64,000 nt of DNA from Escherichia coli (GTDB lineage Bacteria; Pseudomonadota; Gammaproteobacteria; Enterobacterales; Enterobacteriaceae), in the NCBI RefSeq assembly GCF_003790525.1, contig NZ_CP033635.1. The stretch is one strand, 5' to 3'. This document shows positions 2,895 to 46,303 of the stretch, piece by piece. A program made the translations under genes and the position numbers. The notes beneath the pieces are model-generated. The model was not told the origin of the DNA. It searched no databases and saw only the letters and a list, made by a program, of their open reading frames with translations. Position 1 is the stretch's first letter; each line of letters begins with the position of its first letter.

Positions 2895-2964
2895 TTTGAC
2901 GAGGGCGCGTAATTGCCCCAATCTCATAGGATAATCGTTGCCAAAGGCCAACGAGCCAGAACAT

Positions 2965-3008
2965 AACCGTAGGCCGGATAGGGCGTTCACGCCGCATCCG
3001 GCAGCCGT
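2965..3008. repeat. REP (repetitive extragenic palindrome) element in the yhdP-tldD intergenic region
   Basis: Sequence gtaggccggatagggcgttcacgccgcatccggcag matches the REP consensus (GCCGGATG...CATCCGGC palindrome). Confidence 0.7.
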
Positions 3009-3034: not shown

Positions 3035-4495
<1,461 letters not shown>

Positions 4496-4544
4496 TAATT
4501 TCAGTATTTTCAGAAGGATAATTAATCCTTCTCCGTGTACGAAC

Positions 4545-4585
4545 GGTCCCCTCGCCCCTCTGGGGTTAGGGTGAGGGGAACCCGT
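4545..4585. repeat. GC-rich palindromic intergenic repeat (CCCCTCGCCCCT...GGGTGAGGGGAA); second copy at 22396-22430
   Basis: Inverted repeat cccctc/gagggg seen directly; a near-identical motif recurs between nanA and nanT. Confidence 0.5.
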
Positions 4586-4622
4586 TGGCACAGGTTTGTA
4601 CTACGTAACAGTACAATATTAA

Positions 4623-5552
4623 TTACTTCTCTTTCCCGCGCCCGTGCATCTCCTGAAACAATTTACCGACCTCAACAAAATAATCCGTCAGCGAGTTGAT
4701 CACGACCTGTACCTTCAGCGGTAGCTTATCTTTTTCGGTATACAACGCATAAACCGGGCGTGGATCTGACTGGTAACGCGGCAGCAGGATCTCCAGTTCC
4801 CCGCGATTGATCTCGTTGATCACCCACATCAGCGGCACGTAGGCGATCCCGGCACCCGCCGTCAGCCAGCGCACCAGCGTCATCGGATCATTAGTCACAA
4901 ATCTTCCTTGTGGGATCAGGCGAGTCGAGATCCCTTCCGGTGCGATCAGTTCAAATTCATTGTCGGGCCGCACGCTGTATTCAAGCCATGAATGACTACT
5001 CAAATCGGCGGGTTTTTCCGGTATGCCGTATTGTGTGAGATAGCTTTTCGCGGCGCACACCACCATCGGCATCGCGCCCAGACGGCGGGAAAACAGGCTG
5101 GAATCCTGCAACGCGCCGACGCGGATCACCACATCCAGACCATCGGCAATCAGGTCGGGGGCAGGAATTCCGGTAACCAGATTGACGCTCAAACCTGGGT
5201 ATTCTTTCAGCATTTTTGCTGTCAGCCCGGCGAGAACATTTTGTGCCATAGTTGAAGAACAGCCAATGCGCAGCGTCCCGATGGGGGTGTTATTGAAGGC
5301 ATACAGTTGCTCATGAACATCCTGCACTTCATGGAGCATCCGACGGCAGCCCTGGTAGTAAATTCTACCGGCTTCGGTCAGGCCAATGCTGCGTGTGCTA
5401 CGGTTTAACAGCTTTACCTGTAACTCATCTTCCAGTTTTGACACCGTCTGACTGATGGACGAAACGCTCATCTGTAGCTGTCTGGCGGCGGCGGTAAAAG
5501 AGCCAAATTCAACTACTTTGGCAAACACCGACATGCGTTTTAGTCGTTCCAT
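4623..5552 (-). CDS. aaeR: LysR-family transcriptional regulator AaeR (309 aa)
   Basis: ORF with N-terminal HTH typical of LysR regulators; divergent from aaeXAB as in E. coli. Confidence 0.93.
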   Translation of the reverse strand: MERLKRMSVFAKVVEFGSFTAAARQLQMSVSSISQTVSKLEDELQVKLLNRSTRSIGLTEAGRIYYQGCRRMLHEVQDVHEQLYAFNNTPIGTLRIGCSSTMAQNVLAGLTAKMLKEYPGLSVNLVTGIPAPDLIADGLDVVIRVGALQDSSLFSRRLGAMPMVVCAAKSYLTQYGIPEKPADLSSHSWLEYSVRPDNEFELIAPEGISTRLIPQGRFVTNDPMTLVRWLTAGAGIAYVPLMWVINEINRGELEILLPRYQSDPRPVYALYTEKDKLPLKVQVVINSLTDYFVEVGKLFQEMHGRGKEK

Positions 5553-5734
5553 TATTCACTCTGACTTAAAAGTGATTTAGATCACATAATATAGATAACA
5601 GCATAACAGTTACGCTAATATATTAAATATCAATCTACAGCAATGTTGCTCTCGCCCGGCTTTCCATGCCCTTCTCTGCGGCGACAGATGCTGAAAATAA
5701 TAACGCCTGCTCTCTCTATACAACCAAGGTCAAC

Positions 5735-5938
5735 ATGAGTCTGTTTCCCGTTATCGTGGTGTTTGGGCTGTCCTTCCCACCGATATTTTTTGAATTGCTT
5801 TTATCACTGGCGATTTTCTGGCTGGTGCGCCGGGTACTTGTGCCAACAGGTATCTACGACTTTGTCTGGCATCCGGCGTTGTTCAACACCGCGCTCTATT
5901 GCTGCTTGTTTTATTTGATATCGCGACTGTTCGTTTGA
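5735..5938 (+). CDS. aaeX: Small membrane protein AaeX (67 aa)
   Basis: Internal Met of track ORF 5666..5938 gives the 67-aa hydrophobic protein [12 protein letters not shown]..., immediately upstream of aaeA. Confidence 0.85.
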
Positions 5939-5945
5939 GGTTGAA

Positions 5946-6878
5946 GTGAAAACACTAATAAGAAAATTCTCCCGTACGGCCATCACGGTCGTATTAGTCA
6001 TTCTGGCCTTCATCGCAATTTTTAATGCCTGGGTCTATTACACCGAATCCCCGTGGACGCGTGACGCGCGCTTTAGCGCTGACGTCGTTGCGATCGCGCC
6101 GGACGTTTCTGGACTCATTACCCAGGTGAATGTTCATGATAACCAGCTGGTGAAAAAAGGACAGGTACTGTTCACCATCGACCAGCCGCGTTATCAAAAG
6201 GCGCTTGAGGAAGCGCAAGCCGATGTTGCTTATTATCAGGTACTGGCACAGGAGAAACGCCAGGAGGCCGGACGTCGTAACCGTCTCGGTGTGCAGGCGA
6301 TGTCTCGCGAAGAGATCGACCAGGCCAACAACGTACTACAAACAGTTCTGCATCAGTTAGCGAAAGCGCAGGCGACCCGCGATCTGGCAAAACTGGATCT
6401 TGAACGTACAGTCATCCGCGCGCCAGCAGATGGCTGGGTGACCAACCTCAACGTCTATACCGGTGAGTTTATTACCCGTGGATCAACGGCGGTTGCGCTG
6501 GTGAAACAGAACTCCTTCTATGTACTGGCCTATATGGAAGAAACTAAGCTGGAAGGGGTGCGCCCTGGGTATCGTGCGGAGATCACGCCGCTTGGCAGTA
6601 ACAAAGTGCTGAAAGGGACTGTTGATAGTGTTGCCGCTGGGGTCACCAACGCCAGCAGCACGCGTGACGACAAAGGGATGGCGACCATCGACTCTAACCT
6701 TGAATGGGTGCGTTTGGCGCAACGTGTTCCGGTTCGTATTCGTCTCGACAACCAGCAAGAGAACATCTGGCCTGCGGGCACCACTGCTACAGTGGTGGTC
6801 ACTGGCAAACAAGATCGCGACGAAAGCCAGGATTCGTTCTTCCGTAAAATGGCCCATCGCCTGCGTGAGTTTGGTTAA
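5946..6878 (+). CDS. aaeA: p-Hydroxybenzoic acid efflux pump membrane-fusion subunit AaeA (310 aa), GTG start
   Basis: Full ORF; N-terminal TM helix then HlyD-like sequence; recognised as AaeA. Confidence 0.93.
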
Positions 6879-6883
6879 TCACG

Positions 6884-8851
6884 ATGGGTATTTTCTCCAT
6901 TGCTAACCAACATATTCGCTTTGCGGTAAAACTGGCGACCGCCATTGTACTGGCGCTGTTTGTTGGCTTTCACTTCCAGCTGGAAACGCCACGCTGGGCG
7001 GTACTGACAGCGGCGATTGTTGCCGCCGGTCCGGCCTTTGCTGCGGGAGGTGAACCGTATTCTGGCGCTATTCGCTATCGTGGCTTTTTGCGCATCATCG
7101 GCACATTTATTGGCTGTATTGCCGGACTGGTAATCATCATTGCGATGATCCGCGCACCATTATTGATGATTCTGGTGTGCTGTATCTGGGCCGGTTTTTG
7201 TACCTGGATATCCTCGCTGGTACGAATAGAAAACTCGTATGCGTGGGGGCTGGCCGGTTATACCGCGCTGATCATTGTGATCACTATTCAGCCGGAACCA
7301 TTGCTTACGCCGCAGTTTGCCGTCGAACGTTGTAGCGAGATCGTTATCGGTATTGTGTGTGCAATTATGGCGGATTTGCTCTTTTCTCCGCGATCGATCA
7401 AACAAGAAGTGGATCGAGAGCTGGAAAGTTTGCTGGTCGCGCAATATCAATTAATGCAACTCTGTATCAAACATGGCGATGGTGAAGTTGTCGATAAAGC
7501 CTGGGGCGATCTGGTGCGACGTACTACGGCGTTACAAGGTATGCGCAGCAACCTGAATATGGAATCTTCCCGCTGGGCGCGGGCCAATCGACGTTTAAAA
7601 GCGATCAATACGCTATCGCTGACGCTGATTACACAATCCTGCGAAACTTATCTTATTCAGAATACGCGCCCGGAATTGATCACTGATACTTTCCGCGAAT
7701 TTTTTGACACGCCGGTAGAAACCGCGCAGGACGTCCACAAGCAGCTCAAACGCCTGCGGAGAGTGATCGCCTGGACCGGGGAACGGGAAACGCCTGTTAC
7801 CATTTATAGCTGGGTCGCGGCGGCAACGCGTTATCAGCTTCTCAAGCGCGGCGTTATCAGTAACACAAAAATCAACGCCACCGAAGAAGAGATCCTGCAA
7901 GGCGAACCGGAAGTCAAAGTAGAGTCAGCCGAACGTCATCATGCGATGGTTAACTTCTGGCGAACCACACTTTCCTGCATTCTGGGGACGCTTTTCTGGC
8001 TGTGGACGGGCTGGACTTCCGGCAGTGGTGCAATGGTGATGATTGCGGTAGTGACGTCACTGGCAATGCGTTTGCCAAATCCACGCATGGTGGCGATCGA
8101 CTTTATCTACGGGACGCTGGCCGCGCTGCCGTTAGGGCTGCTCTACTTTTTGGTGATTATCCCTAATACTCAACAGAGCATGTTGCTGCTGTGTATTAGC
8201 CTGGCAGTGCTGGGATTTTTCCTCGGTATAGAAGTACAGAAACGGCGACTGGGCTCGATGGGGGCGCTGGCCAGCACCATAAATATTATCGTGCTGGATA
8301 ACCCGATGACTTTCCATTTCAGTCAGTTTCTCGACAGCGCATTAGGGCAAATCGTCGGCTGTGTGCTCGCGTTCACCGTTATTTTGCTGGTGCGGGATAA
8401 ATCGCGCGACAGGACTGGACGTGTACTGCTTAATCAGTTTGTTTCTGCCGCTGTTTCCGCGATGACTACCAATGTGGCACGTCGTAAAGAGAATCACCTC
8501 CCGGCACTTTATCAGCAGCTGTTTTTGCTGATGAATAAGTTCCCAGGGGATTTGCCGAAATTTCGCCTGGCGCTGACGATGATTATCGCGCACCAGCGCC
8601 TGCGTGATGCGCCGATCCCGGTTAACGAGGATTTATCGGCGTTTCACCGACAAATGCGCCGCACAGCAGACCATGTGATATCTGCCCGTAGCGATGATAA
8701 ACGTCGTCGGTACTTTGGCCAGTTGCTGGAAGAACTTGAAATCTACCAGGAAAAGCTACGCATCTGGCAAGCGCCACCGCAGGTGACGGAACCAGTACAT
8801 CGGCTTACGGGTATGCTCCATAAGTATCAACATGCGTTGACCGATAGTTAA
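6884..8851 (+). CDS. aaeB: p-Hydroxybenzoic acid efflux pump subunit AaeB (655 aa)
   Basis: Full ORF, multi-TM, 5 bp downstream of aaeA; recognised as AaeB. Confidence 0.93.
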
Positions 8852-8856
8852 GTCAA

Positions 8857-8885
8857 AACCGACGCCAAAAGCGTCGGTTTTTTCA
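8857..8885 (+). terminator. Rho-independent terminator after aaeB
   Basis: Hairpin aaccgacgc-caaaa-gcgtcggtt followed by a T-run. Confidence 0.8.
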
Positions 8886-8942
8886 TGGCTATACTTAGCA
8901 ATGAACGGCAGAACTCGCCGCGAAACGTGACGGTGGCAACAG

Positions 8943-9215
8943 ATGAATATTTATACCTTTGATTTTGATGAGATTGAGAGTCAGGAGGATTTTTATCGCG
9001 ACTTCAGCCAAGCCTTTGGTCTGGCGAAAGATAAGGTACGCGATCTCGACTCACTATGGGATGTGTTAATGAACGATGTCCTGCCGCTACCACTTGAGAT
9101 TGAATTTGTTCATCTGGGAGAGAAAACGCGTCGCCGTTTTGGCGCGTTAATATTGCTGTTTGATGAGGCAGAGGAAGAGCTGGAAGGGCATTTGCGTTTT
9201 AATGTTCGTCATTAG
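8943..9215 (+). CDS. yhcO: Barstar-like protein YhcO (90 aa)
   Basis: ORF translation [21 protein letters not shown]... recognised as YhcO. Confidence 0.88.
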
Positions 9216-9270
9216 CGCAAAAAAAAGCCCCCGAACCGGGGGCAATATCGTCGGACAAGACGATGAGGGT

Positions 9271-9534
9271 TTATTTGTACAGTTCAGCCGTAGCGTGCCA
9301 GGTGTCACCGCTACGAGCTTCCGTAATCTGGTAGGCCGTTGCGCCTTTCTCTTCTGCTTTTTTGTTCAGCATTTCACGCATATCCATTGGCGAAGACGCC
9401 ACACCACTTACGGATACGGTCCCGATTGCTTCACGATTTTGTGCTTGTGCAGCATCAATGGAGTCGGCAGCGAATGCACCGAAAGAGAGAACAGAAAGTA
9501 CGCTTAATGCAGCAACAGTGGTTTTGATTTTCAT
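9271..9534 (-). CDS. yhcN: Periplasmic stress-induced protein YhcN (87 aa, signal peptide; DUF1471 family)
   Basis: Internal ATG preceded by gaggtaaaaatc RBS; N-terminal signal peptide MKIKTTVAALSVLSVLSFGAFA. Confidence 0.88.
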   Translation of the reverse strand: MKIKTTVAALSVLSVLSFGAFAADSIDAAQAQNREAIGTVSVSGVASSPMDMREMLNKKAEEKGATAYQITEARSGDTWHATAELYK

Positions 9535-9898
9535 GATTTTTACCTCGACATAATCTTTTAGCTGGGCCTTTGTTTCGTGACCCATATCACAAAATCAAGT
9601 ATACACTAATTATTGAACTAATTAATACCACGCTAACTGTTTCAGTTGATACTAAGTGTTAAAAATGTGAATTTTAATAACAAAAAAGTATTAAAAACAC
9701 GGTTATTTATTATAAATACCATATTTTTCAATTAGATAATGGATTTTGCATAATGTGCTTTTTTTACCGTATGTATTCATTGTGTGAATGATATGTCGCA
9801 GTAAAACGCACTATTCGTTAAATTAATCGCAGGGGAAAGCAGGGGGTTGAGAGGGATAAGCAACATTTTCCCCGCCGCCAGAAGCGACGGGGCAGAGA

Positions 9899-10372
<474 letters not shown>

Positions 10373-10397
10373 TCACCCGATATGGTGGTTGATACAA

Positions 10398-10433
10398 CAT
10401 TATTGTGCATACAGATGAATTTTTATGCAAACA
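10398..10433 (-). promoter_or_regulatory. Putative ARG box operator(s) in the argR promoter (autoregulation)
   Basis: tgcatacagaTGAATttttATGCAaa resembles the ARG box consensus TGAAT-N4-ATTCA, immediately upstream of argR. Confidence 0.5.
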
Positions 10434-10728
10434 GTCAGCCCTGAAGAAGGCTGAAATAATGTTATGAAAGAGCGGGATTTTATCAAATTTCGTTATTGAG
10501 AAACATGCCTGCGTCACGGCATGCAAATTCTGCTTAAAAGTAAATTAATTGTTATCAAATTGATGTTGTTTTGGCTGAACGGTAGGGTATATTGTCACCA
10601 CCTGTTGGAATGTTGCGCTAATGCATAAGCGACTGTTAATTACGTAAGTTAGGTTCCTGATTACGGCAATTAAATGCATAAACGCTAAACTTGCGTGACT
10701 ACACATTCTTGAGATGTGGTCATTGTAA

Positions 10729-11742
<1,014 letters not shown>

Positions 11743-24725: not shown

Positions 24726-26058
<1,333 letters not shown>

Positions 26059-26204
26059 ACGTATTCGCTCAGGCAGGGGGCGCTGGTTGGGAACTCAACG
26101 TTGGCATGGTTTCGCTGCTCTTGTGTAGATGTGTTGCAGTTATTTGCGACATTCCGCCGGAGTAGCGGAACTATGGAAAACGGCAATTGGCGCTCTTATC
26201 CCTT

Positions 26205-26236
26205 AGCTTTGTAAGGCTTAATTTTGGTAGAATGGG
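26205..26236 (+). promoter_or_regulatory. Candidate sigma70 promoter with extended -10 (TGgTAGAAT) for the AT-rich two-gene module
   Basis: TGGTAGAAT at 26225-26233 seen directly; the -35 is weak (TTGTAA or TTAGCT with non-ideal spacing). Confidence 0.35.
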
Positions 26237-26264
26237 GAATCGTTTAACGGAAAAAAACAATCAG

Positions 26265-26759
26265 ATGATTTCTTTTCTATCCGATGAATTTGAGGAATTT
26301 CCGCAGGGAGATTTTTTAAATCATCTCTATAGGTTTTCGGTAGACCATCATCATTTTATCGTGATATTTAGCCCTATTGATATTAGCGATGCGGAGTACC
26401 ATCAATACCGTAGCGAGGAAGTTGGATTTGAAATCCCAACTAATTGTTTTGATGTGAAATTTGATAGGCAAGAAAACTTTGATAGTGGTAACTTTTACAT
26501 GCCCCCCGCCGCAACTGAATGCTCGAGGCGCAGACGCTTTACTGATGAACTCGCAGAGGCGCTAGCAACGATTATTGAAAAGCATTACATCATTTATCAT
26601 GCCAGGGCTTATCTTGCCATCGCAGAGAATGACAAGTTGAAACGTTACTATGACCGGATTTTACACAATGCCCCGGCTAATGTAGCATATAGAGTAATCA
26701 AAGATGTTGGAGAGGAGGAACGAGGTTATGCCATACAAACCGAATGTTTCCGAACTTAA
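26265..26759 (+). CDS. Hypothetical acidic protein (~164 aa from ATG 26265; alternative starts 26232 or 26187), no recognised domain
   Basis: Single long ORF in an AT-rich (~40% GC by eye) segment; MISFLSDEFEEFPQGDFLNHLYRF...; no motif I recognise; start ambiguous, weak RBS. Confidence 0.6.
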   Translation: MISFLSDEFEEFPQGDFLNHLYRFSVDHHHFIVIFSPIDISDAEYHQYRSEEVGFEIPTNCFDVKFDRQENFDSGNFYMPPAATECSRRRRFTDELAEALATIIEKHYIIYHARAYLAIAENDKLKRYYDRILHNAPANVAYRVIKDVGEEERGYAIQTECFRT

Positions 26760-26874
26760 GAAAATGACTGTTGCAGAGCGCAAGAAAGAAGCCATGCGCC
26801 AGCTTAAAGCATCCTTTGAGCGCGCCAGCATTGAAGGGACTTTGCATAAACGCTCTGCAAAGTCTGTTGCGTAA
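26728..26874 (+). CDS. Hypothetical small basic protein (48 aa), overlaps the 3' end of the preceding ORF by 32 nt in another frame
   Basis: Strong RBS GAGGAGG 7-13 nt upstream of ATG 26728; MPYKPNVSELKKMTVAERKKEAMRQLKASFERASIEGTLHKRSAKSVA; below the ORF-track length cutoff, found by reading. Confidence 0.5.
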   Translation: MPYKPNVSELKKMTVAERKKEAMRQLKASFERASIEGTLHKRSAKSVA

Positions 26875-26888
26875 TGAAAGATTTCAAT

Positions 26889-26914
26889 AACCCGCTGCGG
26901 CGGGCCTTTTTTTG
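26889..26914. terminator. Rho-independent terminator 15 nt after the small ORF (possibly bidirectional, facing the convergent VWA gene)
   Basis: cccgctgcggcgggcctttttttg: GC stem plus T7 run. Confidence 0.75.
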
Positions 26915-27095
26915 CCCTCAGAAAATCCCCTCTGACCTGCCTCAGGGATTATATACAACCTTCAGTTAATTAGCTGCGCACCATACGCGGCCCGAGCCTT
27001 ATCGCCTTGTTCAAATTCGACAATTCGTCGGCCAATTTCCCCGAACGTCGCGGTGCTAAGTACCGTATCCGTCCGGGCGTATCCGGCCAGAATTT

Positions 27096-28265
27096 TCAGG
27101 CGGTTTCTCTTGCTGTCACTACGCCATTTTGCGCAGCCCACAGATTCACATCTTCCTTACGAATGGCGGCGGCCATCATGCCGGGGAATAAATCTGGGGT
27201 ACAGGCAAAGGAGGGAATACCCATGGCGGCGAGTTTTCCTGCCAGTGACCGGTCGTAAAACGGCGCACCTTCATCGCTTAAGGCCAGCAGGGTAACCACC
27301 TGTACGCCGGACTGAATCAACTCACTGGCGCGTTGCAACAGATTGCGTTCCACCCCGCCTTCGTAGAGGTCGGAAATCAGCACCAGAATGGTATTGCGCG
27401 GATCGCGAATCAAAGACTGGCAGTAGCCCACCGCGCGGTTGATGTCGGTGCCGCCACCCAGCTGTACGCCAAACAGCAGCTCTACCGGATCGTCGAGCTT
27501 CTCTGTCATATCAACGACTGCGGTGTCGAAAACCACCAGATGCGTTTTTACCGCCGGGAGCGATGCCATTACTGCGCCAAAAATACTGGAATAGACCACC
27601 GAGGAGGCCATCGACCCACTCTGGTCGATACATAAAATGATCTCCTTTTGCGTGCGTTGAGACTTGCGCCCGTAGCCGATCAGCGTTTCAGGAACAATAC
27701 TTTTATACTCTTCCTGCCAGTGGCGCAGGTTGGCGCGAATGGTGCGCTGCCAGTCAATTTCCGCGTGGCGCGGGCGACGATTACGTACCGCACGATTAAG
27801 AGCGCCGCTTACCGCGCTACGCATTGGCTCTTCAAGCTGTTTCATCAATTGCTCGACAACTTTACGCACCACAAGCCTGGCGGTTTCTTTGGTTTTGGCC
27901 GGAATTACGCCATTCAGCGACATCAGCGTGGAGACCAGATGAACATCAGGCTGGACGTTTGCCAGCATCTCCGGCTCCAGCAACATACTGTGCAAATTAA
28001 GACGTTCAAAGGCGTCTTTTTGCATCACCTGAACCACAGAAGAAGGGAAATACTGGCGAATATCACCCAGCCAGCGAGCGACTTTGGGTGACGATCCACC
28101 CGTGCCGCCGCGTAATCCATGTTTACCCTCTGGCTGATACAGCGCCGCCAGCGCGGCATCAATCGCGGACTCTCTGGCATCCAGCGCCACGTTACAGGCA
28201 TTGTCGGCATCTTCTCCAAGGATCAGACGCCAGCGGCGCAGCCGTTCCATTTCGTTACTCGACAT
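27096..28265 (-). CDS. von Willebrand factor A (VWA) domain protein with complete MIDAS motif (389 aa); fifth gene of novel operon
   Basis: DQSGSM (DxSxS), GGGTD and LISDLYEGG motifs seen in the translation; start overlaps the upstream gene's stop by 11 nt. Confidence 0.85.
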   Translation of the reverse strand: MSSNEMERLRRWRLILGEDADNACNVALDARESAIDAALAALYQPEGKHGLRGGTGGSSPKVARWLGDIRQYFPSSVVQVMQKDAFERLNLHSMLLEPEMLANVQPDVHLVSTLMSLNGVIPAKTKETARLVVRKVVEQLMKQLEEPMRSAVSGALNRAVRNRRPRHAEIDWQRTIRANLRHWQEEYKSIVPETLIGYGRKSQRTQKEIILCIDQSGSMASSVVYSSIFGAVMASLPAVKTHLVVFDTAVVDMTEKLDDPVELLFGVQLGGGTDINRAVGYCQSLIRDPRNTILVLISDLYEGGVERNLLQRASELIQSGVQVVTLLALSDEGAPFYDRSLAGKLAAMGIPSFACTPDLFPGMMAAAIRKEDVNLWAAQNGVVTARETA

Positions 28266-30504
28266 GATTTTCCCTTTCGTGTGGTGGCAAAGCCAGAATG
28301 CGGCGCAGTAGCGGCAGCATTAACGCGGCACGCTGTTCATCCCATATACCGCTGGTCTCTTCTTGCTGCGCGACACGCTCGCCCTGCGCGGCGCGTTCGC
28401 CTAACTGGCGGCGTTCCGGGCTGGAAAAACGGCCGAATGTCCGCCGCAGCATCGGCAGGATCCGGGTGAAGTGATTGTCGTTCAGGCCGCTTAGCCAGGC
28501 ATCGATCAACTGCCATAATTCGCTATTGTGCAGTAGCACCATCGCGCTGTCGTTGAGGAAACCTTCCGCCCATGCGGCACTTTCCGCCGGGGGATTGGCT
28601 GGCGATAGCGCCAGGTTCATCAGCGTGCTGATCCGTTCTGTCGTTAACGTTTGCAGATCAAACAACAGGCGCGTCGCCGTTCCGCGAAGCAGCGCGTGTG
28701 CGGTACTGCCCTCTGCCAGCACCATCAACGCCTGCAACCAGCCCGCCAATAGATCTTCGTTATCCAGCAACCGCAGCGCGGCGTGGGCGTCGATAACTTT
28801 TTCTCTCATACTGGCGGCGCTGTCGTCGTTGAGCGCCGAACAGGCTCCGGGTAGGGCGATGGCGGCGCGCGGGGCGAGGCTCATCAGTACCTGCATTACC
28901 ATACCAGAGTCGGTCTGGCGCACGTTGCCGTAGCGGACAATCGCCACCAGTGGTGCCAGGGCTTCCAGCAACTGTTCGATATTGCCCTGAGTGGCAGCCA
29001 GTGATTCCAGTGTATTGGCGATGGGGGCAATCGCGGTCTGTAAATCGGCCAGTAGCACCTGTTGGATAAGCTTTGCCAGTTCCGGCAGCGTGCTGGCGTA
29101 TTGCGCCCTCACAATGGCATAGCGGGAGCTGGCCTGCTCAATGCTGTTACCCCAACGGCTGGCGGTAATGATGTTGATTGCCAGTGCCGGTTCCCAGCGC
29201 AGCGACCAGACTTCGTGGAACGTCCCTTTGCTGTTATTTCCTTGTCCAGCCAGACGGCCCCAGGAAATGTCGAGTAAGGTCAGGCGATGCAGTAAATGGC
29301 TACGCGCCAGATCGCCGGGTTTGCGCAGATCAAGATCCAGCACTTTTTCGCTGGCTTCTGCCTTCAGGCGCAGCGTTTTTTGCTGTTGCGTAATGTCGCG
29401 TTGGAGCGGCACGACGGGCGTATCATCCGGTACGCTTCCCAGCGCGTCGCCGACAATTAACTTCTGGCGAATCATCTGCATTGGCGCGCTTTCGCCCATA
29501 CACACTACGGTTTGCAGCGCTTCGCAAAGTTCGTCAAGCCCCGGCTGCGGGTGATGGCGCATAATCGCCAGCGTCTGCGCCAGCCGCGCCGCTTCGATAA
29601 TGTGGGCGCTGGAACAGTCGAGATCGGCTTCGCGAAACAGCCTTGCCGCGCGTGACAGCCAGCCGATATCGCGGTGAGAAGCGCCCTGATAACGCCACAG
29701 ATGATCGTACCATTCCGGTGACACCACCCCTGCGCCATAACCGCTGGCGCGGCTTAACGCCTCGTAGCTCCAGGGCGTCCAGGCTGCCGCGACCTTGCAC
29801 TTCGGCAAATTTTTCAGCAGTTCGTTATCATTCTTTGCGGGCGGCAGGTTTTCCAGCGCCGGAACGTGCCACGCACCGCAGACTACCGCGATGCGCGAGA
29901 AGCCCTCTTTTTTCGCCTGACGTAGCGTCTTGCGCATATACGCTTCACGCAGTTGATCTCTGGCTGAGTTTCGGGCTTCGGGAGTTGCCTGGCGTAGGGC
30001 AATCATCGCCTCGCGAATCGCCTCGAACAGAGACAAATCATCTTCGCGTTCCTCTACTCTGTGGCTCCACCAGCTTTCCCCATCGGTGTAACCGGCGGCG
30101 CGGCCCAGCCAGTCCAGCGGATCGCCGTCGGGACTGGCTTCAACGGCATCATCGTCATCGCTCTCTTTTTCGTCATCAAGCGCGAACTGATGACTGATGG
30201 GCAAGTCCATAAAGCGCACGGCGATATTTTGCTCAAAACCATAGCGCAGCGCCTGCCATTCCGGGGAGAACGCCGCAAAGGGGTAAAACGCGGCGTGATG
30301 TGAGTCGTCCGGGGCATAAATCAGTAGCGCGACCGGCGGTTGCATCTGTTCATGCTGCATAAAAGGCAGGATGGATTCGCCGTCGGGCGGCCCTTCCACC
30401 AGCAGGCAGTCGGGCTGTAGCGTCTCCAGCGCCTTTCGCAGGCTGCGCGCGCAGCCAGGGCCATGGTGACGGATGCCAAACAAATGAACGGTTTGTTCAG
30501 TCAT
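28255..30504 (-). CDS. Large hypothetical protein (749 aa), no motif recognised; fourth gene of novel operon
   Basis: Uninterrupted 2.25-kb ORF; AAGG RBS in the 17-nt gap after the AAA+ gene; acidic stretch DDEKESDDDDAVEASPDGD; helical Leu/Ala-rich C-terminal half. Confidence 0.8.
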   Translation of the reverse strand: MTEQTVHLFGIRHHGPGCARSLRKALETLQPDCLLVEGPPDGESILPFMQHEQMQPPVALLIYAPDDSHHAAFYPFAAFSPEWQALRYGFEQNIAVRFMDLPISHQFALDDEKESDDDDAVEASPDGDPLDWLGRAAGYTDGESWWSHRVEEREDDLSLFEAIREAMIALRQATPEARNSARDQLREAYMRKTLRQAKKEGFSRIAVVCGAWHVPALENLPPAKNDNELLKNLPKCKVAAAWTPWSYEALSRASGYGAGVVSPEWYDHLWRYQGASHRDIGWLSRAARLFREADLDCSSAHIIEAARLAQTLAIMRHHPQPGLDELCEALQTVVCMGESAPMQMIRQKLIVGDALGSVPDDTPVVPLQRDITQQQKTLRLKAEASEKVLDLDLRKPGDLARSHLLHRLTLLDISWGRLAGQGNNSKGTFHEVWSLRWEPALAINIITASRWGNSIEQASSRYAIVRAQYASTLPELAKLIQQVLLADLQTAIAPIANTLESLAATQGNIEQLLEALAPLVAIVRYGNVRQTDSGMVMQVLMSLAPRAAIALPGACSALNDDSAASMREKVIDAHAALRLLDNEDLLAGWLQALMVLAEGSTAHALLRGTATRLLFDLQTLTTERISTLMNLALSPANPPAESAAWAEGFLNDSAMVLLHNSELWQLIDAWLSGLNDNHFTRILPMLRRTFGRFSSPERRQLGERAAQGERVAQQEETSGIWDEQRAALMLPLLRRILALPPHERENHVE

Positions 30505-30521
30505 AGTGGTTGCCTTGCTGA

Positions 30522-31616
30522 TTACACAATTTCGCGGCAGGCGCGATAGAGATCGTTCCAGTCGCTGCGCTCTTTGACTATAGTTTCCAGATATTCACGC
30601 CATACCACGTCGTCCTGCACGGGATCTTTTACCACCGCGCCGATAAGGCTTGCGGCGATATCCCGCGGATGTAGCACGCCGTCGCCAAAATGGCCCGCCA
30701 GCGCCATACCGTTGTTGATAACGGAGATCGCCTCCGCGGTGCTGAGAGTACTGGTTGGCGACTTAATTTTCGTTTTGCCGTCAACCGTCAGGCCGTTTCG
30801 CAGTTCGCGGAAGATTTGCACGACTCGCTGGATCTCTTTAAGCGCTGGCGGTTCGGCAGGAAGTGCCAGCGCCTGACCCAGTTCGGCGACGCGGCGAGTG
30901 ACAATGTTAATCTCTTCTTCTTCGCTGGCGGGTACGGGCAAAATGACCGTGTTGAAACGACGTTTAAGTGCGGAAGAAAGCTCGTTAACGCCTTTATCCC
31001 GGTTGTTGGCGGTGGCGATAACGTTAAAGCCGCGCGTCGCCTGGACCTCTTCATTCAGTTCGGGGATAGGCAGCGTTTTTTCCGACAGGATCGTGATCAG
31101 CGTGTCCTGAACATCGGCAGGAATACGCGTCAGCTCTTCTACGCGGGCAATCTGCCCGCGTGCCATCGCCCGCATCAATGGGCTTTCTACCAGCGCCGAA
31201 CGTGACGGACCTTTAGAGAGCAACTCCGCGTAGTTCCAGCCATAACGCATTTGTTCTTCACCGGTGCCTGCGGTGCCCTGAATAATTAACGTTGAGTCGC
31301 CGCTGATGGCAGCCGCCAGATGTTCAGAGACCCAGGATTTCGCAGTGCCGGGTACGCCATACAACAGCAGTGCGCGATCGGTTGCCAGCGTGGCAACGGC
31401 GGTTTCGATAATCCGCCTGTTGCCGATATATTTCGGCGTGACCTCAAAACCATTTTCCAGTTGCCCGCCTAACAGATAAGTAGCAACGGACCACGGAGAA
31501 ATAGCCCAGTTTTCCGGGCGCGGATGAGTATCGTTTTTTTGCAGCTCATCCAGTTCTTCTGCAAATTGTTGTTCGGCATGTCGGCGTAAAACGGCGGCAG
31601 TAGCGGTGGAAGTCAT
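30522..31616 (-). CDS. MoxR-like AAA+ ATPase (364 aa from ATG 31616); third gene of novel operon
   Basis: Walker A LLLYGVPGTAKS (GxPGxAKS, MoxR-type), Walker B-like IARVEELTRIPADVQ, sensor-1 NVIATANN, Arg finger LKRRF; ATG overlaps the upstream stop as ATGA. Confidence 0.85.
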   Translation of the reverse strand: MTSTATAAVLRRHAEQQFAEELDELQKNDTHPRPENWAISPWSVATYLLGGQLENGFEVTPKYIGNRRIIETAVATLATDRALLLYGVPGTAKSWVSEHLAAAISGDSTLIIQGTAGTGEEQMRYGWNYAELLSKGPSRSALVESPLMRAMARGQIARVEELTRIPADVQDTLITILSEKTLPIPELNEEVQATRGFNVIATANNRDKGVNELSSALKRRFNTVILPVPASEEEEINIVTRRVAELGQALALPAEPPALKEIQRVVQIFRELRNGLTVDGKTKIKSPTSTLSTAEAISVINNGMALAGHFGDGVLHPRDIAASLIGAVVKDPVQDDVVWREYLETIVKERSDWNDLYRACREIV

Positions 31617-33217
31617 AAAGTAGTTTCTCCGACAAAAAACGAATGAAGTTGAATTCGGTGCGCCAGCGTGGCGCTCAGGGCAGTAAAGGCTGCCTCGCAA
31701 TAAGGCGTTTGTTGTGCGTCATGCGGCCACTTGTCAATGACATCATTGAGGACTTCGGGGGCCAGCAGGCAGGCGAAATCACTCATCACATGGCGCAGGG
31801 CGTAGTCAAAGCGCGCGGAATCATGTTTCACCCAACGGTGCAGCTCCGTGACCATTTGCTGGCTCAGGCGCAGGCTAAAGAGCGACGCATCCAGCGGTAA
31901 CAGGGCGATGTAGCGTTGTAAATGTTCGCCGCCCATTACCGAGAACAGTAACGTCAACACTGGCTCGTGTTCTTCTACGGGCAGGCATTGCAGAAGCTCA
32001 AAGGCGTTAATCTTCACGCCAGCAGGGGAATGAATGCTTATTCCGACGGGGAGTAGGGCGAGGAATGCCTGCGCCCACTGTGGATTTTTTTCGCGCAGGA
32101 CGGCGTGATACCAGGCGCGCAGTAGCGCCTCCTGCCAGTCGGTTTTCCCGGCCCAGCGCAGCAGTTCAACGGGGGTAGCCTGCAGTTGCGTTTGCCACCA
32201 GTCGAGCGGAACCGCTGCAACTATCTGATACAGCCACCATGCGCGCTGGCCCAACTTTTCGCCTTTGGGCTTAGTTTCTTCCAGCGCATCGGCCTTCCAC
32301 TCTGGTAAGAACGCCTCCGGGGCATCAAGGGCGACGCGCAGCATTTTTTCTTTGCCGGATAAGCCTTTTAGCCTTTCAAGTAAGGTCTCAGGAGCGGGGG
32401 ATGAACTGAGCAACGGCGCTAACCGAGACTTCATGCGCGAGATCCAGGCGCTTTCCGGCAGACAACACAGTAACCGTGCCGCAGTTTGCCGCACCTCTTT
32501 GCTGCGATCGGATAATGTCTGTTCCAGAAAGGCTTCGTCGTGTTGGGAGATCCCCACTTCCAGCACAGCCAGCAGCTGTGCGCGTTCGCGGGCATCCAGC
32601 GAACTCATCTCCTGCGCCAGCCGATCGCGACCCTGTTCCGGGGCGCGAATGCGCATTTGCGTCAGATATTGCAGACGCTGTTCGGACGTGCCGTGCAGCC
32701 ACATTTCTTCATCCAGCGGAGCGTCAGTGGAGGCGAGAACATAGCCCCAATCGGCGTTGATTTGCGCCAGCCAGCACCCGCGAGCGCCCAGAACATTGGA
32801 CAGGATGCCGCGTAGAGATGGCTTTTGCGCTCCATAATTCAGCAATGCTGGTAACAGCAGGGGCGGAGGAAGAAGTTGACGACGGACCAATAGATCAAGC
32901 GCCGACCACAGCAACCGCGGCGGTCCTTCTGACAGCAGCAGATGCAGCAGTCCCGCAAAAGCCGGGTTGTTTATTGGCTCGGCATTTTCTTTATCGATTT
33001 CCGGCAGCGGTGCGGGGTCAATCGCCTGCGGCACCCAGCCAGCCAGATGGCAGAGCGCCAGAACGCCCGCCGAGCGCAGTAGCTGTTGCTCTGCGGATGT
33101 GTTATTCGCCAGTTCAGACAGTAACAGCCCAATCTCACTTTGCGACGCCGACGGTGTAAACGCTTTTTTGTCTGTGCCGAGTAGCGCTGTGCGGGTTAAA
33201 TTTTGCCATTCGTTCAT
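31613..33217 (-). CDS. Hypothetical alpha-helical Leu-rich protein (534 aa from ATG 33217; 541 aa if 33238); second gene of novel operon
   Basis: Long ORF; ATG at 33217 forms an ATGA overlap with the SWIM gene stop; Leu/Ala/Trp-rich repeat-like sequence; no catalytic motif recognised. Confidence 0.8.
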   Translation of the reverse strand: MNEWQNLTRTALLGTDKKAFTPSASQSEIGLLLSELANNTSAEQQLLRSAGVLALCHLAGWVPQAIDPAPLPEIDKENAEPINNPAFAGLLHLLLSEGPPRLLWSALDLLVRRQLLPPPLLLPALLNYGAQKPSLRGILSNVLGARGCWLAQINADWGYVLASTDAPLDEEMWLHGTSEQRLQYLTQMRIRAPEQGRDRLAQEMSSLDARERAQLLAVLEVGISQHDEAFLEQTLSDRSKEVRQTAARLLCCLPESAWISRMKSRLAPLLSSSPAPETLLERLKGLSGKEKMLRVALDAPEAFLPEWKADALEETKPKGEKLGQRAWWLYQIVAAVPLDWWQTQLQATPVELLRWAGKTDWQEALLRAWYHAVLREKNPQWAQAFLALLPVGISIHSPAGVKINAFELLQCLPVEEHEPVLTLLFSVMGGEHLQRYIALLPLDASLFSLRLSQQMVTELHRWVKHDSARFDYALRHVMSDFACLLAPEVLNDVIDKWPHDAQQTPYCEAAFTALSATLAHRIQLHSFFVGETTL

Positions 33218-34536
33218 TGTGCGCCTCCGGTTGCCCAAATGACGCTACCGGCAAGCCAGGCGCTACAGGGCGTCAGCTGCTGACCATCCCATTCCCCCAT
33301 TAGCATAAACGGCGCGCCGCCGCTGGCCGCCAGTAACCGCCAACCCTCGTCCGACGACAGGTGCGTCGGTAAGTGCTGGCCCTGTGTCGAGACGAATCGC
33401 CAGCCGCTCTCGTGCGGGTAAATCAATATTTCGCTTACTCGCAGCGGCAGAGGCCATTGCCAGGGATTCGCGCTAAGCCGCTGCGCCATGTCATGCAGCG
33501 CGTCCGGGAGGGGTAATTCTGCAAGCGGGAATCTTTCACCGCGGGTAAACGGCTCCACAACCCGCGCCCGTAGCGGTGATGCGCCAGGGAAAAAGGCAAG
33601 CGCGCCCTGGCAGACTTGCCCGGTGATAAAGTGCTGGGGAAAGTTTTTACTACCGTGTGAATAGTCCAGCAGTAGCGCGGTGCGGTGGCTCTTTTCTCCG
33701 TACAGCCAGACCCGGCGTCGCCACAGATTATTCCCTTCTTGCGCGCTTTGACCTAAGACCTGCCAGTTATCGAGGCAGGTTAATCCGTCAGTGACGTCGT
33801 GTTTATCCGGGGGTATTCCCAATGCCGCATGGAGATCGCTAAGTTGTGCCGGGGATAACATTTGTTGCTGGCGCCAGGCGTCAATAATCAGCTGTAGCTG
33901 CCCCAGTTCTTTGCACAGGCTCGATGGCCATACCTCGGCGGTAGTAAAATGAGTGGTCAGATTGTTCAGGCGAGCGGCAATTCCCGGTAGTTGGGCGTCG
34001 ACCATGCGGGCGGCGATCCCGGCAAAAGGCAACTGTTGTGCAGAGATCTGCGCCAGACCGTGGCGGATCAGGTCGTGCATCCACTGTTCGAGGAAATCCA
34101 GCCCCGCCGTCATTTTTTGGTTGCGTGCCGCTTCCCGTTTGGCGGCAGCCTGCGGGTCGGCAGCTTTTGCCTCAGCCTGCTCTTTCTTCTCTTCTTTGCG
34201 AACCGCCCGCTGCTGGCGCGAGGTTAGCCACTCGCTTACCCATTCCGGCGGCTCGCCAGCGGTGAAACTTGCGGTGTGTTGCACCTGGAGAAAAAGCAAC
34301 GCAAGGCTATGTTTACAGGGGAATTTACGGCTGGGGCAGGAACATTTACAGGCCAGATCCTGTCTGTCGATTCGTACCTGATAAGGGCGGGAGCCGCTAC
34401 CTTTACACTCTCCCCAGAAGGCAGCCTCGCTATATCCGAGCGTCGGCCATTTTGCGGGAGCAACCAGGCCACGAGCCGCTTTAACCGAGGCGTCATCGGG
34501 CGCCAGGGCTTGCACTGATTCAACGGTCAGTTCCAT
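33214..34536 (-). CDS. SWIM zinc-finger domain protein (440 aa); first gene of novel operon
   Basis: CxCxnCxH signature at residues 63-76 (ACKCSCPSRKFPCKHSLALLF); first ORF downstream of gltD on the same strand. Confidence 0.85.
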   Translation of the reverse strand: MELTVESVQALAPDDASVKAARGLVAPAKWPTLGYSEAAFWGECKGSGSRPYQVRIDRQDLACKCSCPSRKFPCKHSLALLFLQVQHTASFTAGEPPEWVSEWLTSRQQRAVRKEEKKEQAEAKAADPQAAAKREAARNQKMTAGLDFLEQWMHDLIRHGLAQISAQQLPFAGIAARMVDAQLPGIAARLNNLTTHFTTAEVWPSSLCKELGQLQLIIDAWRQQQMLSPAQLSDLHAALGIPPDKHDVTDGLTCLDNWQVLGQSAQEGNNLWRRRVWLYGEKSHRTALLLDYSHGSKNFPQHFITGQVCQGALAFFPGASPLRARVVEPFTRGERFPLAELPLPDALHDMAQRLSANPWQWPLPLRVSEILIYPHESGWRFVSTQGQHLPTHLSSDEGWRLLAASGGAPFMLMGEWDGQQLTPCSAWLAGSVIWATGGAQ

Positions 34537-34649
34537 TACAATTCTCTATTGGCGTGGGGAAATCGATGGGGTCAAGGAGGCGTTAAGCAAAGCAGGAGGA
34601 GACTGTTTTCCGTAACAGCGTATTGCGCGTCCATCGCAAATTTGTAGTG

Positions 34650-34679
34650 AGTATAGCGGGCGGTAAATTCAGGAAACAA
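34650..34679 (-). promoter_or_regulatory. Candidate sigma70 promoter for the five-gene operon (-35 TTGTTT, 18-bp spacer, -10 TATACT on minus strand)
   Basis: Hexamers read on the reverse complement ~115-140 nt upstream of the SWIM start codon; heuristic only. Confidence 0.3.
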
Positions 34680-34721
34680 TGGCGGATAGCGGAAAGTGTA
34701 GTTTTTCGGAAAAAGATAACT

Positions 34722-34760
34722 TTATCCCGTGTAACCCGTTTTAAGCGGGCTACACGGGAG
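34722..34760 (-). terminator. Hairpin downstream of gltD (candidate terminator or attenuator)
   Basis: Inverted repeat cccgtgtaacccg / cgggctacacggg 10-45 nt after the gltD stop; the trailing U-tract on the minus strand is interrupted. Confidence 0.4.
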
Positions 34761-34768
34761 GCTGCAAT

Positions 34769-36199
<1,431 letters not shown>

Positions 36200-45578: not shown

Positions 45579-46303
45579 GTAAAAGCCGCTTAACGGTGTT
45601 TAGTTTCGTTCGCCGTTTTCTTCTGCGGTTAATGGTTGTCCTCGCCGTTTTCTGGGGCGGGGGCATCGCGTTGTTTAGCGTTGCGCCTGTTCCCTTCTCA
45701 GCGGTAATGGTTGAGCGGCAAGTCAGCGCCTGGCTGCATGGCAATTTTCGTTACGTGGCACATTCTGACTGGGTCAGTATGGATCAAATCTCGCCGTGGA
45801 TGGGACTGGCGGTGATTGCCGCAGAAGATCAGAAATTTCCTGAGCACTGGGGCTTTGATGTCGCTTCCATTGAGCAAGCCCTGGCGCACAACGAACGCAA
45901 TGAAAACCGTATTCGCGGTGCGTCAACGATTTCTCAGCAGACAGCCAAAAATCTCTTTTTATGGGATGGGCGCAGCTGGGTTCGAAAAGGGCTGGAAGCC
46001 GGATTAACGCTGGGGATAGAAACGGTCTGGAGCAAAAAGCGTATCCTGACGGTTTACCTGAATATCGCCGAATTTGGCGACGGTGTGTTTGGCGTCGAAG
46101 CTGCGGCACAACGTTATTTCCACAAACCCGCGAGCAAGCTTACCCGGTCGGAAGCTGCATTACTGGCAGCTGTATTACCTAATCCACTTCGTTTCAAAGT
46201 CTCCGCGCCATCGGGCTACGTGCGTAGCCGTCAGGCGTGGATTTTACGGCAGATGTATCAGTTAGGCGGTGAGCCGTTTATGCAACAACACCAGCTTGAT
46301 TAA
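45575..46303 (+). CDS. mtgA: Monofunctional peptidoglycan glycosyltransferase MtgA (242 aa)
   Basis: Full ORF overlapping the elbB stop; transglycosylase motifs ([13 protein letters not shown]); recognised as MtgA. Confidence 0.95.

Follow-up and report, generated by a model that had tools for sequence, protein, structure and literature searches.

MoxR-class AAA+ ATPases of the AAA_5 type are paired with VWA proteins carrying an intact metal ion-dependent adhesion site (MIDAS) in RavA-ViaA, NorQ-NorD, CbbQ-CbbO, CoxD-CoxE and midasin (Rea1), the last being a eukaryotic protein with an AAA ring and a MIDAS domain. YehL gives its name to one of the seven MoxR subfamilies (PMC3893208), and no assigned function of YehL was found in that work. 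In Escherichia coli K-12, yehLMPQ encode together a MoxR-class AAA_5 ATPase, a DUF5682 protein, and VWA and SWIM zinc-finger proteins. A MoxR and vWA core is also present in the vWA-MoxR-VMAP ternary conflict systems, which are multi-gene and patchily distributed (PMC7159879). We analyzed a 64,000-nucleotide stretch of E. coli DNA (GCF_003790525.1, contig NZ_CP033635.1), hereafter the window, in which the interval between gltD and nanQ (yhcH) holds a five-gene cassette with the same MoxR-VWA core. The gltD-nanQ/yhcG interval is a multi-allelic variable locus, and the content of the window is one of its alleles. The best overall explanation, to which we assign a probability of about 0.6, is that the cassette is an old allele at this locus and encodes a five-protein ATP-driven complex.

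Cassette genes and related systems

The cassette forms an operon on the minus strand (27096-34536), in which genes for SWIM/OB, DUF5691, MoxR AAA+ ATPase, DUF5682 and VWA proteins follow in that order (Table 1). Neighbouring genes share 4, 4 and 11 nt at three junctions, and a 17-nt gap separates the remaining pair, which implies that one set of partners is co-translated; the operon is translationally coupled and self-contained. For four of the five proteins, nothing informative was matched in NCBIfam or PADLOC, and PHROGs returned matches of DUF5682 and VWA to function-unknown families only.

In the ATPase, the Walker A motif (G87-P-G-T-A-K93), E160-E161, the sensor residue N204 and R219-R220 were invariant across 17 sequences, YehL among them. 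At Walker B, the acidic pair is Glu-Glu instead of Asp-Glu. The best PDB sequence matches of the ATPase were midasin and NorQ, while PDB sequence searches with the DUF5682 (also as a profile), DUF5691, SWIM and VWA proteins were empty. In the VWA protein, the MIDAS residues D214-x-S216-x-S218, G270-272 and D299 were invariant, and T273 nearly so, in 16 homologues including YehP.

The N-terminal domain of the DUF5682 protein is predicted to have an alpha/beta fold with a parallel beta-sheet core, and its model showed fold-level similarity to six solved TIKI/TraB/ChaN/Ere members. This would relate it to the TIKI/TraB/PrgY/GumN/ChaN/erythromycin-esterase superfamily, which includes RRSP and HopBA1. 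The residues G10-x-R-H13-H14, E37 and C-G210-x-W-H213 (GxRHH, E and CGxWH) were invariant in an alignment including the Yeh protein. All of them sit after beta-strands, as in TIKI/TraB proteins, with E37 after the second strand. Two Gly-x-x-His motifs after beta-strands, together with a glutamate, would be in line, as a putative site, with the 2His/2Glu catalytic scheme of TIKI/TraB-type proteins (PMC6254334). In the hhalign comparison with YbaP, the invariant motifs aligned with GSIH and VEAD of that protein, but the match was not significant (E = 0.12). Unlike the superfamily members, DUF5682 carries a fused helical solenoid of ~500 residues and belongs to a MoxR-VWA operon.

The SWIM protein resembles ZSWIM8 and OB-fold proteins, and its OB-like domains are similar to the DNA-binding HIN, SSB and RPA folds. 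The leader upstream of its gene is 99.6-100% identical among cassette-bearing lineages, and ~84 nt upstream of the SWIM start could also be aligned with Klebsiella huaxiensis. A possible promoter, TTGTTT-18 nt-TATACT (34679-34650), was read by eye in the leader; the promoter scan did not call this site.

Judging from sequence comparison, the cassette is a divergent paralogue of yehLMPQ. Its ATPase, DUF5682 and VWA proteins are 41%, 27% and 38% identical to YehL, YehM and YehP, and cassette alignments with the Yeh proteins added show no variation at the Walker, MIDAS and GxRHH/E/CGxWH residues. The SWIM gene opens the cassette and closes yehLMPQ, and the two SWIM proteins have the zinc-finger motif alone in common. 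No YehQ or YehI counterpart of the cassette DUF5691 was detected, and hhalign comparisons of the DUF5691 and SWIM profiles with YehQ and YehI were not significant. Among the 5,426 complete E. coli genomes surveyed, yehLMPQ is near-core (5,209 genomes, 96%), whereas the cassette was found in 33 (0.6%), SMS-3-5 and 32 others, always on the chromosome and in a single copy. Given this frequency of yehLMPQ in the species, strains like SMS-3-5, which has the locus of the window, very probably carry two paralogous systems. Compared with the characterised MoxR-VWA pairs, the cassette has three extra partners (SWIM/OB, DUF5691 and DUF5682) and a putative built-in hydrolase domain, and it lacks an adjacent client gene.

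Assignment to the vWA-MoxR-VMAP ternary systems was rejected: no VMAP or effector-associated domains were found in the cassette, the match to bpMoxR in Pfam was weak and partial (E = 2.9e-4, 49 residues), and the other genes are those for SWIM, DUF5691 and DUF5682 proteins. SWIM, YehL and TraB go unmentioned in Kaur et al. 2020 (PMC7159879). PADLOC-DB v2 gave a single sub-threshold match, that of the ATPase to IetA (E = 1e-3, 30 residues), and none for the other four proteins.

Table 1. Features of the gltD-nanQ interval and its flanking genes, in window positions
Feature	Position	Strand	Properties
Gene 1, SWIM zinc-finger protein, 440 aa	33214..34536	-	N-terminal SWIM, helical linker, two C-terminal OB-like beta-barrels
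Gene 2, DUF5691 protein, 534 aa	31613..33217	-	Pfam DUF5691, E = 1.2e-122; sub-threshold HEAT-repeat match, E = 0.56
Gene 3, MoxR-class AAA+ ATPase (AAA_5, YehL-like), 364 aa	30522..31616	-	Pfam AAA_5, E = 1.6e-38
Gene 4, DUF5682 protein, 749 aa	28255..30504	-	N-terminal ~250 residues with TIKI/TraB/ChaN/erythromycin-esterase-like fold in the model; rest modelled as alpha-helical solenoid
Gene 5, VWA (CoxE-like) protein, 389 aa	27096..28265	-	Pfam VWA_CoxE, E = 3.6e-52; complete MIDAS motif
Intergenic leader	34537..34768	-	Allele-specific gltD terminator hairpin at ~34726-34758 with T-run; candidate promoter
yhcG remnant (DUF1016/PDDEXK nuclease), residues ~22-68 only (47 residues)	26965..27090	-	tblastn 68% identity, E = 2e-11; blastn 88% to K-12 yhcG; partial DUF1016 pseudogene in RefSeq
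Low-GC (44%) segment of the SMS-3-5 lineage, in place of most of yhcG	26068..26968	+	0.9 kb; no K-12 homology
nanQ (yhcH)	25594..26058	+	Last conserved gene of the left flank; RefSeq annotation of the identical SMS-3-5 locus; K-12 homology to 26067
gltD	34769..36187	-	First conserved gene of the right flank; 99.4% aa identity to K-12 GltD; annotation

Distribution across bacteria and possible function

A scan of representative genomes, supplemented with contig look-ups, yielded 36 loci; the scan relied on exact 8-mer peptides, missed K. huaxiensis and E. coli, and is no census. The loci span about nine phyla, and almost every one of them keeps the five genes in an identical order. They were found in Pseudomonadota, Desulfobacterota, Verrucomicrobiota, Bacteroidota, Chloroflexota, Planctomycetota, Armatimonadota, Acidobacteriota, Actinomycetota and Melainabacteria-like lineages. 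The ATPase-VWA pairing is kept in 34 of the 36 loci, and when all flanking open reading frames (ORFs) were clustered, no sixth gene, client or otherwise, proved to be conserved.

Identity to the E. coli proteins across these loci was 62-94% for the ATPase, 52-89% for VWA, 37-76% for DUF5682, 28-68% for SWIM and 25-56% for DUF5691, the fastest-evolving component. Between E. coli and Bacteroides or Chloroflexota, the ATPase is 73% and VWA 56-61% identical, with 25-30% for DUF5691 in the same loci. Such conservation of the ATPase and VWA across phyla means that either the motor is extremely constrained or transfer between phyla has occurred repeatedly. The DUF5682 family comprised 4,447 clusters (50% identity level) at E <= 1e-3 in a library of 1.84 billion proteins. 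It is almost absent from phages and was found on just 44 plasmids, mostly large ones. The closest DUF5682 protein outside E. coli is that of K. huaxiensis (76% identity), and the next, including one from Bilophila, are 58-66% identical. In one variant of the cassette (locus L054, 6852-7463), a gene for a rhomboid-family intramembrane protease lies between the DUF5682 and VWA genes, a weak hint at a proteolytic theme.

Our best guess is that the cassette encodes an ATP-driven remodelling or processing complex, because the N-terminus of DUF5682 models as a TIKI/TraB-like hydrolase fold. The five proteins would assemble as one complex, in which a hexamer of the MoxR-type ATPase would supply mechanical work. 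By analogy with midasin, RavA-ViaA and NorQ-NorD, the MIDAS site of VWA may seize a client or partner protein by an acidic residue. DUF5682 could serve as a scaffold, and its putative TIKI/TraB-like His/Glu hydrolase site may cleave or process the client. The fast-evolving SWIM/OB and DUF5691 proteins would be responsible for target choice or for sensing the trigger.

A classical MoxR-VWA maturation chaperone, which would assemble a host enzyme encoded elsewhere or insert a metal or cofactor into it, with DUF5682 and DUF5691 as passive scaffolds, is an unlikely alternative. The VWA protein does fall into the CoxE-like family and the ATPase does match NorQ structures, and chaperone-like roles are backed by the MoxR literature, in which the clients of RavA-ViaA are encoded elsewhere (PMC3893208). 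The near-core status of yehLMPQ also fits a housekeeping role. However, no client gene is conserved beside the cassette in the 36 loci, and fast evolution of SWIM and DUF5691 would be unexpected with a conserved enzyme as the client. The invariant His/Glu set in the DUF5682 alignment suggests catalysis rather than a passive scaffold.

It is also unlikely that the cassette is an anti-phage or conflict system, in which SWIM/OB and DUF5691 would sense an invader (e.g., its nucleic acid) and the MoxR-VWA pair would then activate DUF5682 as a hydrolase effector. Patchy distribution in E. coli, a self-contained operon with no conserved client gene nearby, and a variable locus adjoined by the PDDEXK nuclease gene yhcG would all suit such a role, and MoxR-vWA cores occur in described conflict systems (PMC7159879). 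The uneven evolutionary rates follow the pattern of a conserved engine (ATPase and VWA) and a diversifying sensor (SWIM and DUF5691), and the OB-like domains could be compared with DNA-binding folds. On the contrary, nothing beyond the sub-threshold IetA match was found in PADLOC, no toxic effector (nuclease, TIR or pore-former) could be recognised, and the neighbours in the window are housekeeping genes. A near-core paralogue is unusual for a defence system, and phages and small mobile plasmids are practically devoid of the family. The bpMoxR match is weak and partial.

A bolder version of the ATP-driven complex that we prefer is that the cassette and yehLMPQ represent an undescribed class of machines, in which a midasin-like AAA+/MIDAS motor would unfold a target or deliver it to a built-in TIKI-type hydrolase, with a rapidly diversifying SWIM/OB sensor in control. 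This idea is speculative, and we consider it quite improbable. If true, it would mean that a regulated proteolytic or immune surveillance complex is spread over about nine bacterial phyla and has so far been unstudied.

Alleles of the gltD-nanQ locus in E. coli

The part of the window from 20000 to 40800 is the reverse complement of E. coli SMS-3-5 (NC_010498.1, 3,581,197-3,601,997) with a single mismatch. Megablast alignment showed that the whole window is collinear with K-12 MG1655 (3,395,351-3,331,385) in reverse orientation: window 1-26067 corresponds to K-12 3,395,351-3,369,003, and window 34769-64000 to K-12 3,360,616-3,331,385. The flanking genes thus follow the K-12 order in reverse on both sides, as the original prediction stated. 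Homology to K-12 ends on the left at 26067, 9 nt beyond the nanQ stop (gene end 26058), and restarts on the right at 34769, exactly at the gltD stop codon; the break was therefore accurately located at 26059-34768. The sole other break in collinearity is an indel of ~210 bp between tldD and yhdP (window 2945-3008), where K-12 has the extra sequence.

The K-12 interval contains gltF, yhcA, yhcD, yhcE (split by IS5), yhcF and yhcG. A tblastn search of all 64 kb with the K-12 proteins supported the predicted absence of the first five, since GltF, YhcA, YhcD, YhcE and YhcF gave best E-values of 0.003-9, all in unrelated genes. The weak YhcA match at 45994-46101 (E = 0.003) was dismissed as a chance one; according to the collinearity map, it lies inside mtgA. 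YhcG had also been thought undetectable, but a remnant of it survives beside the cassette (Table 1).

The K-12 gltF-yhcADEF chaperone-usher operon occupies exactly the slot of the cassette. One limit of this slot is the gltD stop codon; the other, common to both alleles, lies ~125 nt upstream of where yhcG starts (~55 nt by stricter megablast alignment). This alternative allele (positions 3618-10772 of the K-12 locus L002) corresponds to window 27055-34768. Its genes are unrelated to those of the cassette. In O157:H7 and AHM8C160RI, the order is nanQ-yhcG-gltD without further genes; Ecol_656 has nothing between nanQ and gltD, and MIN9 carries an IS1 deletion. Almost empty gltD-nanQ sites are common among the sampled genomes. 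All alleles part from one another right at the gltD stop codon, and every allele brings a gltD terminator hairpin of its own. Towards yhcG, they have the sequence upstream of that gene in common as far as ...GCGAGGCGCTTTCCAG.

In strains N96 and 2017-02-2CC, the order is nanQ-yhcG-cassette-gltD with yhcG intact. Because of these strains, the cassette can be seen to fill the gltF-yhcADEF slot precisely, and yhcG must have been lost from the SMS-3-5 lineage in a separate event. In strain 18KM2445, yhcG is frameshifted and adjoins a transposase. The allele pattern fits a history in which homologous recombination within the conserved flanks swapped one segment for another, since the divergence points are common to the alleles and neither repeats at the boundaries nor tRNA genes, integrases or Rfam elements were found. 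In two other carriers, EC17CM2 and e1-39, matches in two pieces cover just 96% of the cassette, which points to an internal deletion of ~300 bp; decay of the operon is possible in some carriers.

The K-12 gltF-yhcADE block matched 1,293 genomes (24%), 1,120 of them over at least 80% of the block length. It is nearly clonal, with identity of at least 99% in 1,288 of the 1,293 matching genomes. Its genes have a low GC content of 42-46% and a GC content at third codon positions (GC3) of 0.35-0.42, and the leader has 32% GC. The gltF-yhcADEF set looks like a recently spread fimbrial operon that was probably acquired horizontally. Despite its location in this foreign-looking block, gltF is often treated as a member of the glt operon. 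The original prediction had described the interval as an accessory replacement island. Accessory content does stand in for the K-12 genes, and with 33 carriers it is not the ordinary arrangement for the species. The reading as a replacement island is only partly supported, because the locus is multi-allelic and the K-12 content is itself a foreign-looking minority allele.

In the SMS-3-5 lineage, most of yhcG appears to have been exchanged in a second event for a 44%-GC segment with two ORFs. The segment was found in 28 genomes, every one of them a cassette carrier. Its first ORF lies at 26187-26759 (protein of ~164-190 aa; homologues of ~164 aa) and overlaps a second one of 48 aa at 26728-26874, which is followed by a terminator-like hairpin (26891-26904). 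The GC content of this module is 40-44%. Its proteins matched no family in Pfam, NCBIfam or PADLOC. The family of the first ORF is narrow, with 15 clusters from E. coli, Kluyvera (Kluyvera ascorbata), Morganella and a few metagenomic contigs. In its layout the module resembles a toxin-antitoxin or other small accessory pair.

Within the flanking gltD, the 3' end (window 34769-35400) is unusually polymorphic for a segment of a core gene: 3,358 of 5,415 E. coli genomes are just 90-95% identical to the window here. This suggests deep haplotypes tied to the alternative contents of the neighbouring variable site.

The GC content of the cassette (55-59%) and its GC3 (0.59-0.67) are like those of the gltBD and nanTEK flanks. 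Annotation of the interval revealed no integrase, transposase or other mobility genes, and no tRNA genes, direct or inverted boundary repeats, or Rfam elements were found there. Between E. coli lineages, the cassette genes differ by 0.3-6.6% and the flanks by 1.7-6.4%; DUF5691 is 93.4-95.6% identical. The same five genes, also between gltD and nanQ, are present in K. huaxiensis. Its DNA identity to the window is 75-83% for the cassette, 70-81% for the nan genes and 85% for gltBD. At the protein level, identity is 94% for the ATPase, 89% for VWA, 76% for DUF5682, 68% for SWIM and 56% for DUF5691, with 94% for GltD and 90% for NanT. The presence of the cassette at this site in K. huaxiensis with flank-like divergence points to long residence there and not to a recent import. 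Together with the flank-like composition and divergence within E. coli and the lack of island hallmarks, it makes the cassette an old minority allele rather than a recent island. We infer that vertical descent, together with homologous recombination via the genes on either side, has maintained the cassette and that it is not a recently integrated mobile island.

That a recently acquired genomic island displaced an ancestral gltF-yhcADEFG set in this strain is therefore highly unlikely and largely refuted. The rarity of the cassette, the distance to the nearest DUF5682 proteins outside E. coli and the ability of the module to relocate, as seen from related enterobacterial cassettes at another site, would agree with it. 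However, it is the K-12 genes that have low GC content, the cassette being equal to its flanks in GC and GC3, and integrase, tRNA genes and direct repeats are lacking. The cassette has diverged by up to 6.6% between E. coli lineages and is found at the same site in K. huaxiensis, in both cases with flank-like divergence. The supposedly ancestral block is nearly clonal and present in 24% of genomes, and empty sites are common among those sampled.

An assembly artefact or decayed non-functional DNA has a negligible probability: apart from the yhcG fragment, a genuine pseudogene remnant, nothing speaks for it, the five ORFs are intact, their catalytic motifs are invariant across phyla, and the 8.8-kb stretch recurs identically in many independent complete genomes, with 100% coverage in 33 of them.

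The preferred reading and its meaning

Several points weigh against an old allele encoding a five-protein complex. On other enterobacterial contigs, the cassette lies between ygjQ and ygjR, and in Superficieibacter it is at yet another site. The ygjQ-ygjR location in other Enterobacteriaceae indicates that the module does move between loci, and the position shared by E. coli and K. huaxiensis could come from old recombinational transfer, not pure vertical descent. The survey excludes outgroups such as E. albertii, E. fergusonii and other Klebsiella, and the ancestral state is not polarised. The assembly of the five proteins as one complex is read from the operon structure. The TIKI/TraB assignment of DUF5682 is one of predicted fold only: in the comparison with TraB/GumN (PF01963), Pfam gives DUF5682 alone, hhalign with YbaP stays at E = 0.12, and Foldseek with the whole model returned non-significant helical-repeat matches only. 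In the literature on DUF5682, DUF5691, yehLMPQ and MoxR with SWIM and vWA, no functional study was found.

One of the ygjQ-ygjR contigs (L053, 97-3993) has a second, unrelated module, which consists of MoxR (AAA_3), DUF2201 (VWA-like) and LRV-repeat genes and lies just upstream, between ygjP and ygjQ. MoxR-VWA modules seem to cluster in the ygjP-ygjQ-ygjR region.

As a structural variant, the interval represents routine pangenome variation. It cautions that K-12 is a poor proxy for the "expected" gene order of E. coli at gltD-nanQ, where gltF-yhc is a compositionally foreign minority allele. The more useful result is the content of the cassette. Its gene order is strictly conserved from Enterobacteriaceae to Bacteroidota, Chloroflexota and Verrucomicrobiota, its ATPase is ~73% identical across these phyla, and K-12 has a near-core paralogue, yehLMPQ. 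This uncharacterised five-protein YehL-type MoxR-VWA system, which is widespread among phyla and has a putative TIKI-like hydrolase, is of moderate interest and amenable to experiments. The links of DUF5682/YehM to the TIKI/TraB fold and of the SWIM protein to OB folds, as suggested by the structural models, may provide concrete experimental starting points for long-standing y-genes of E. coli.

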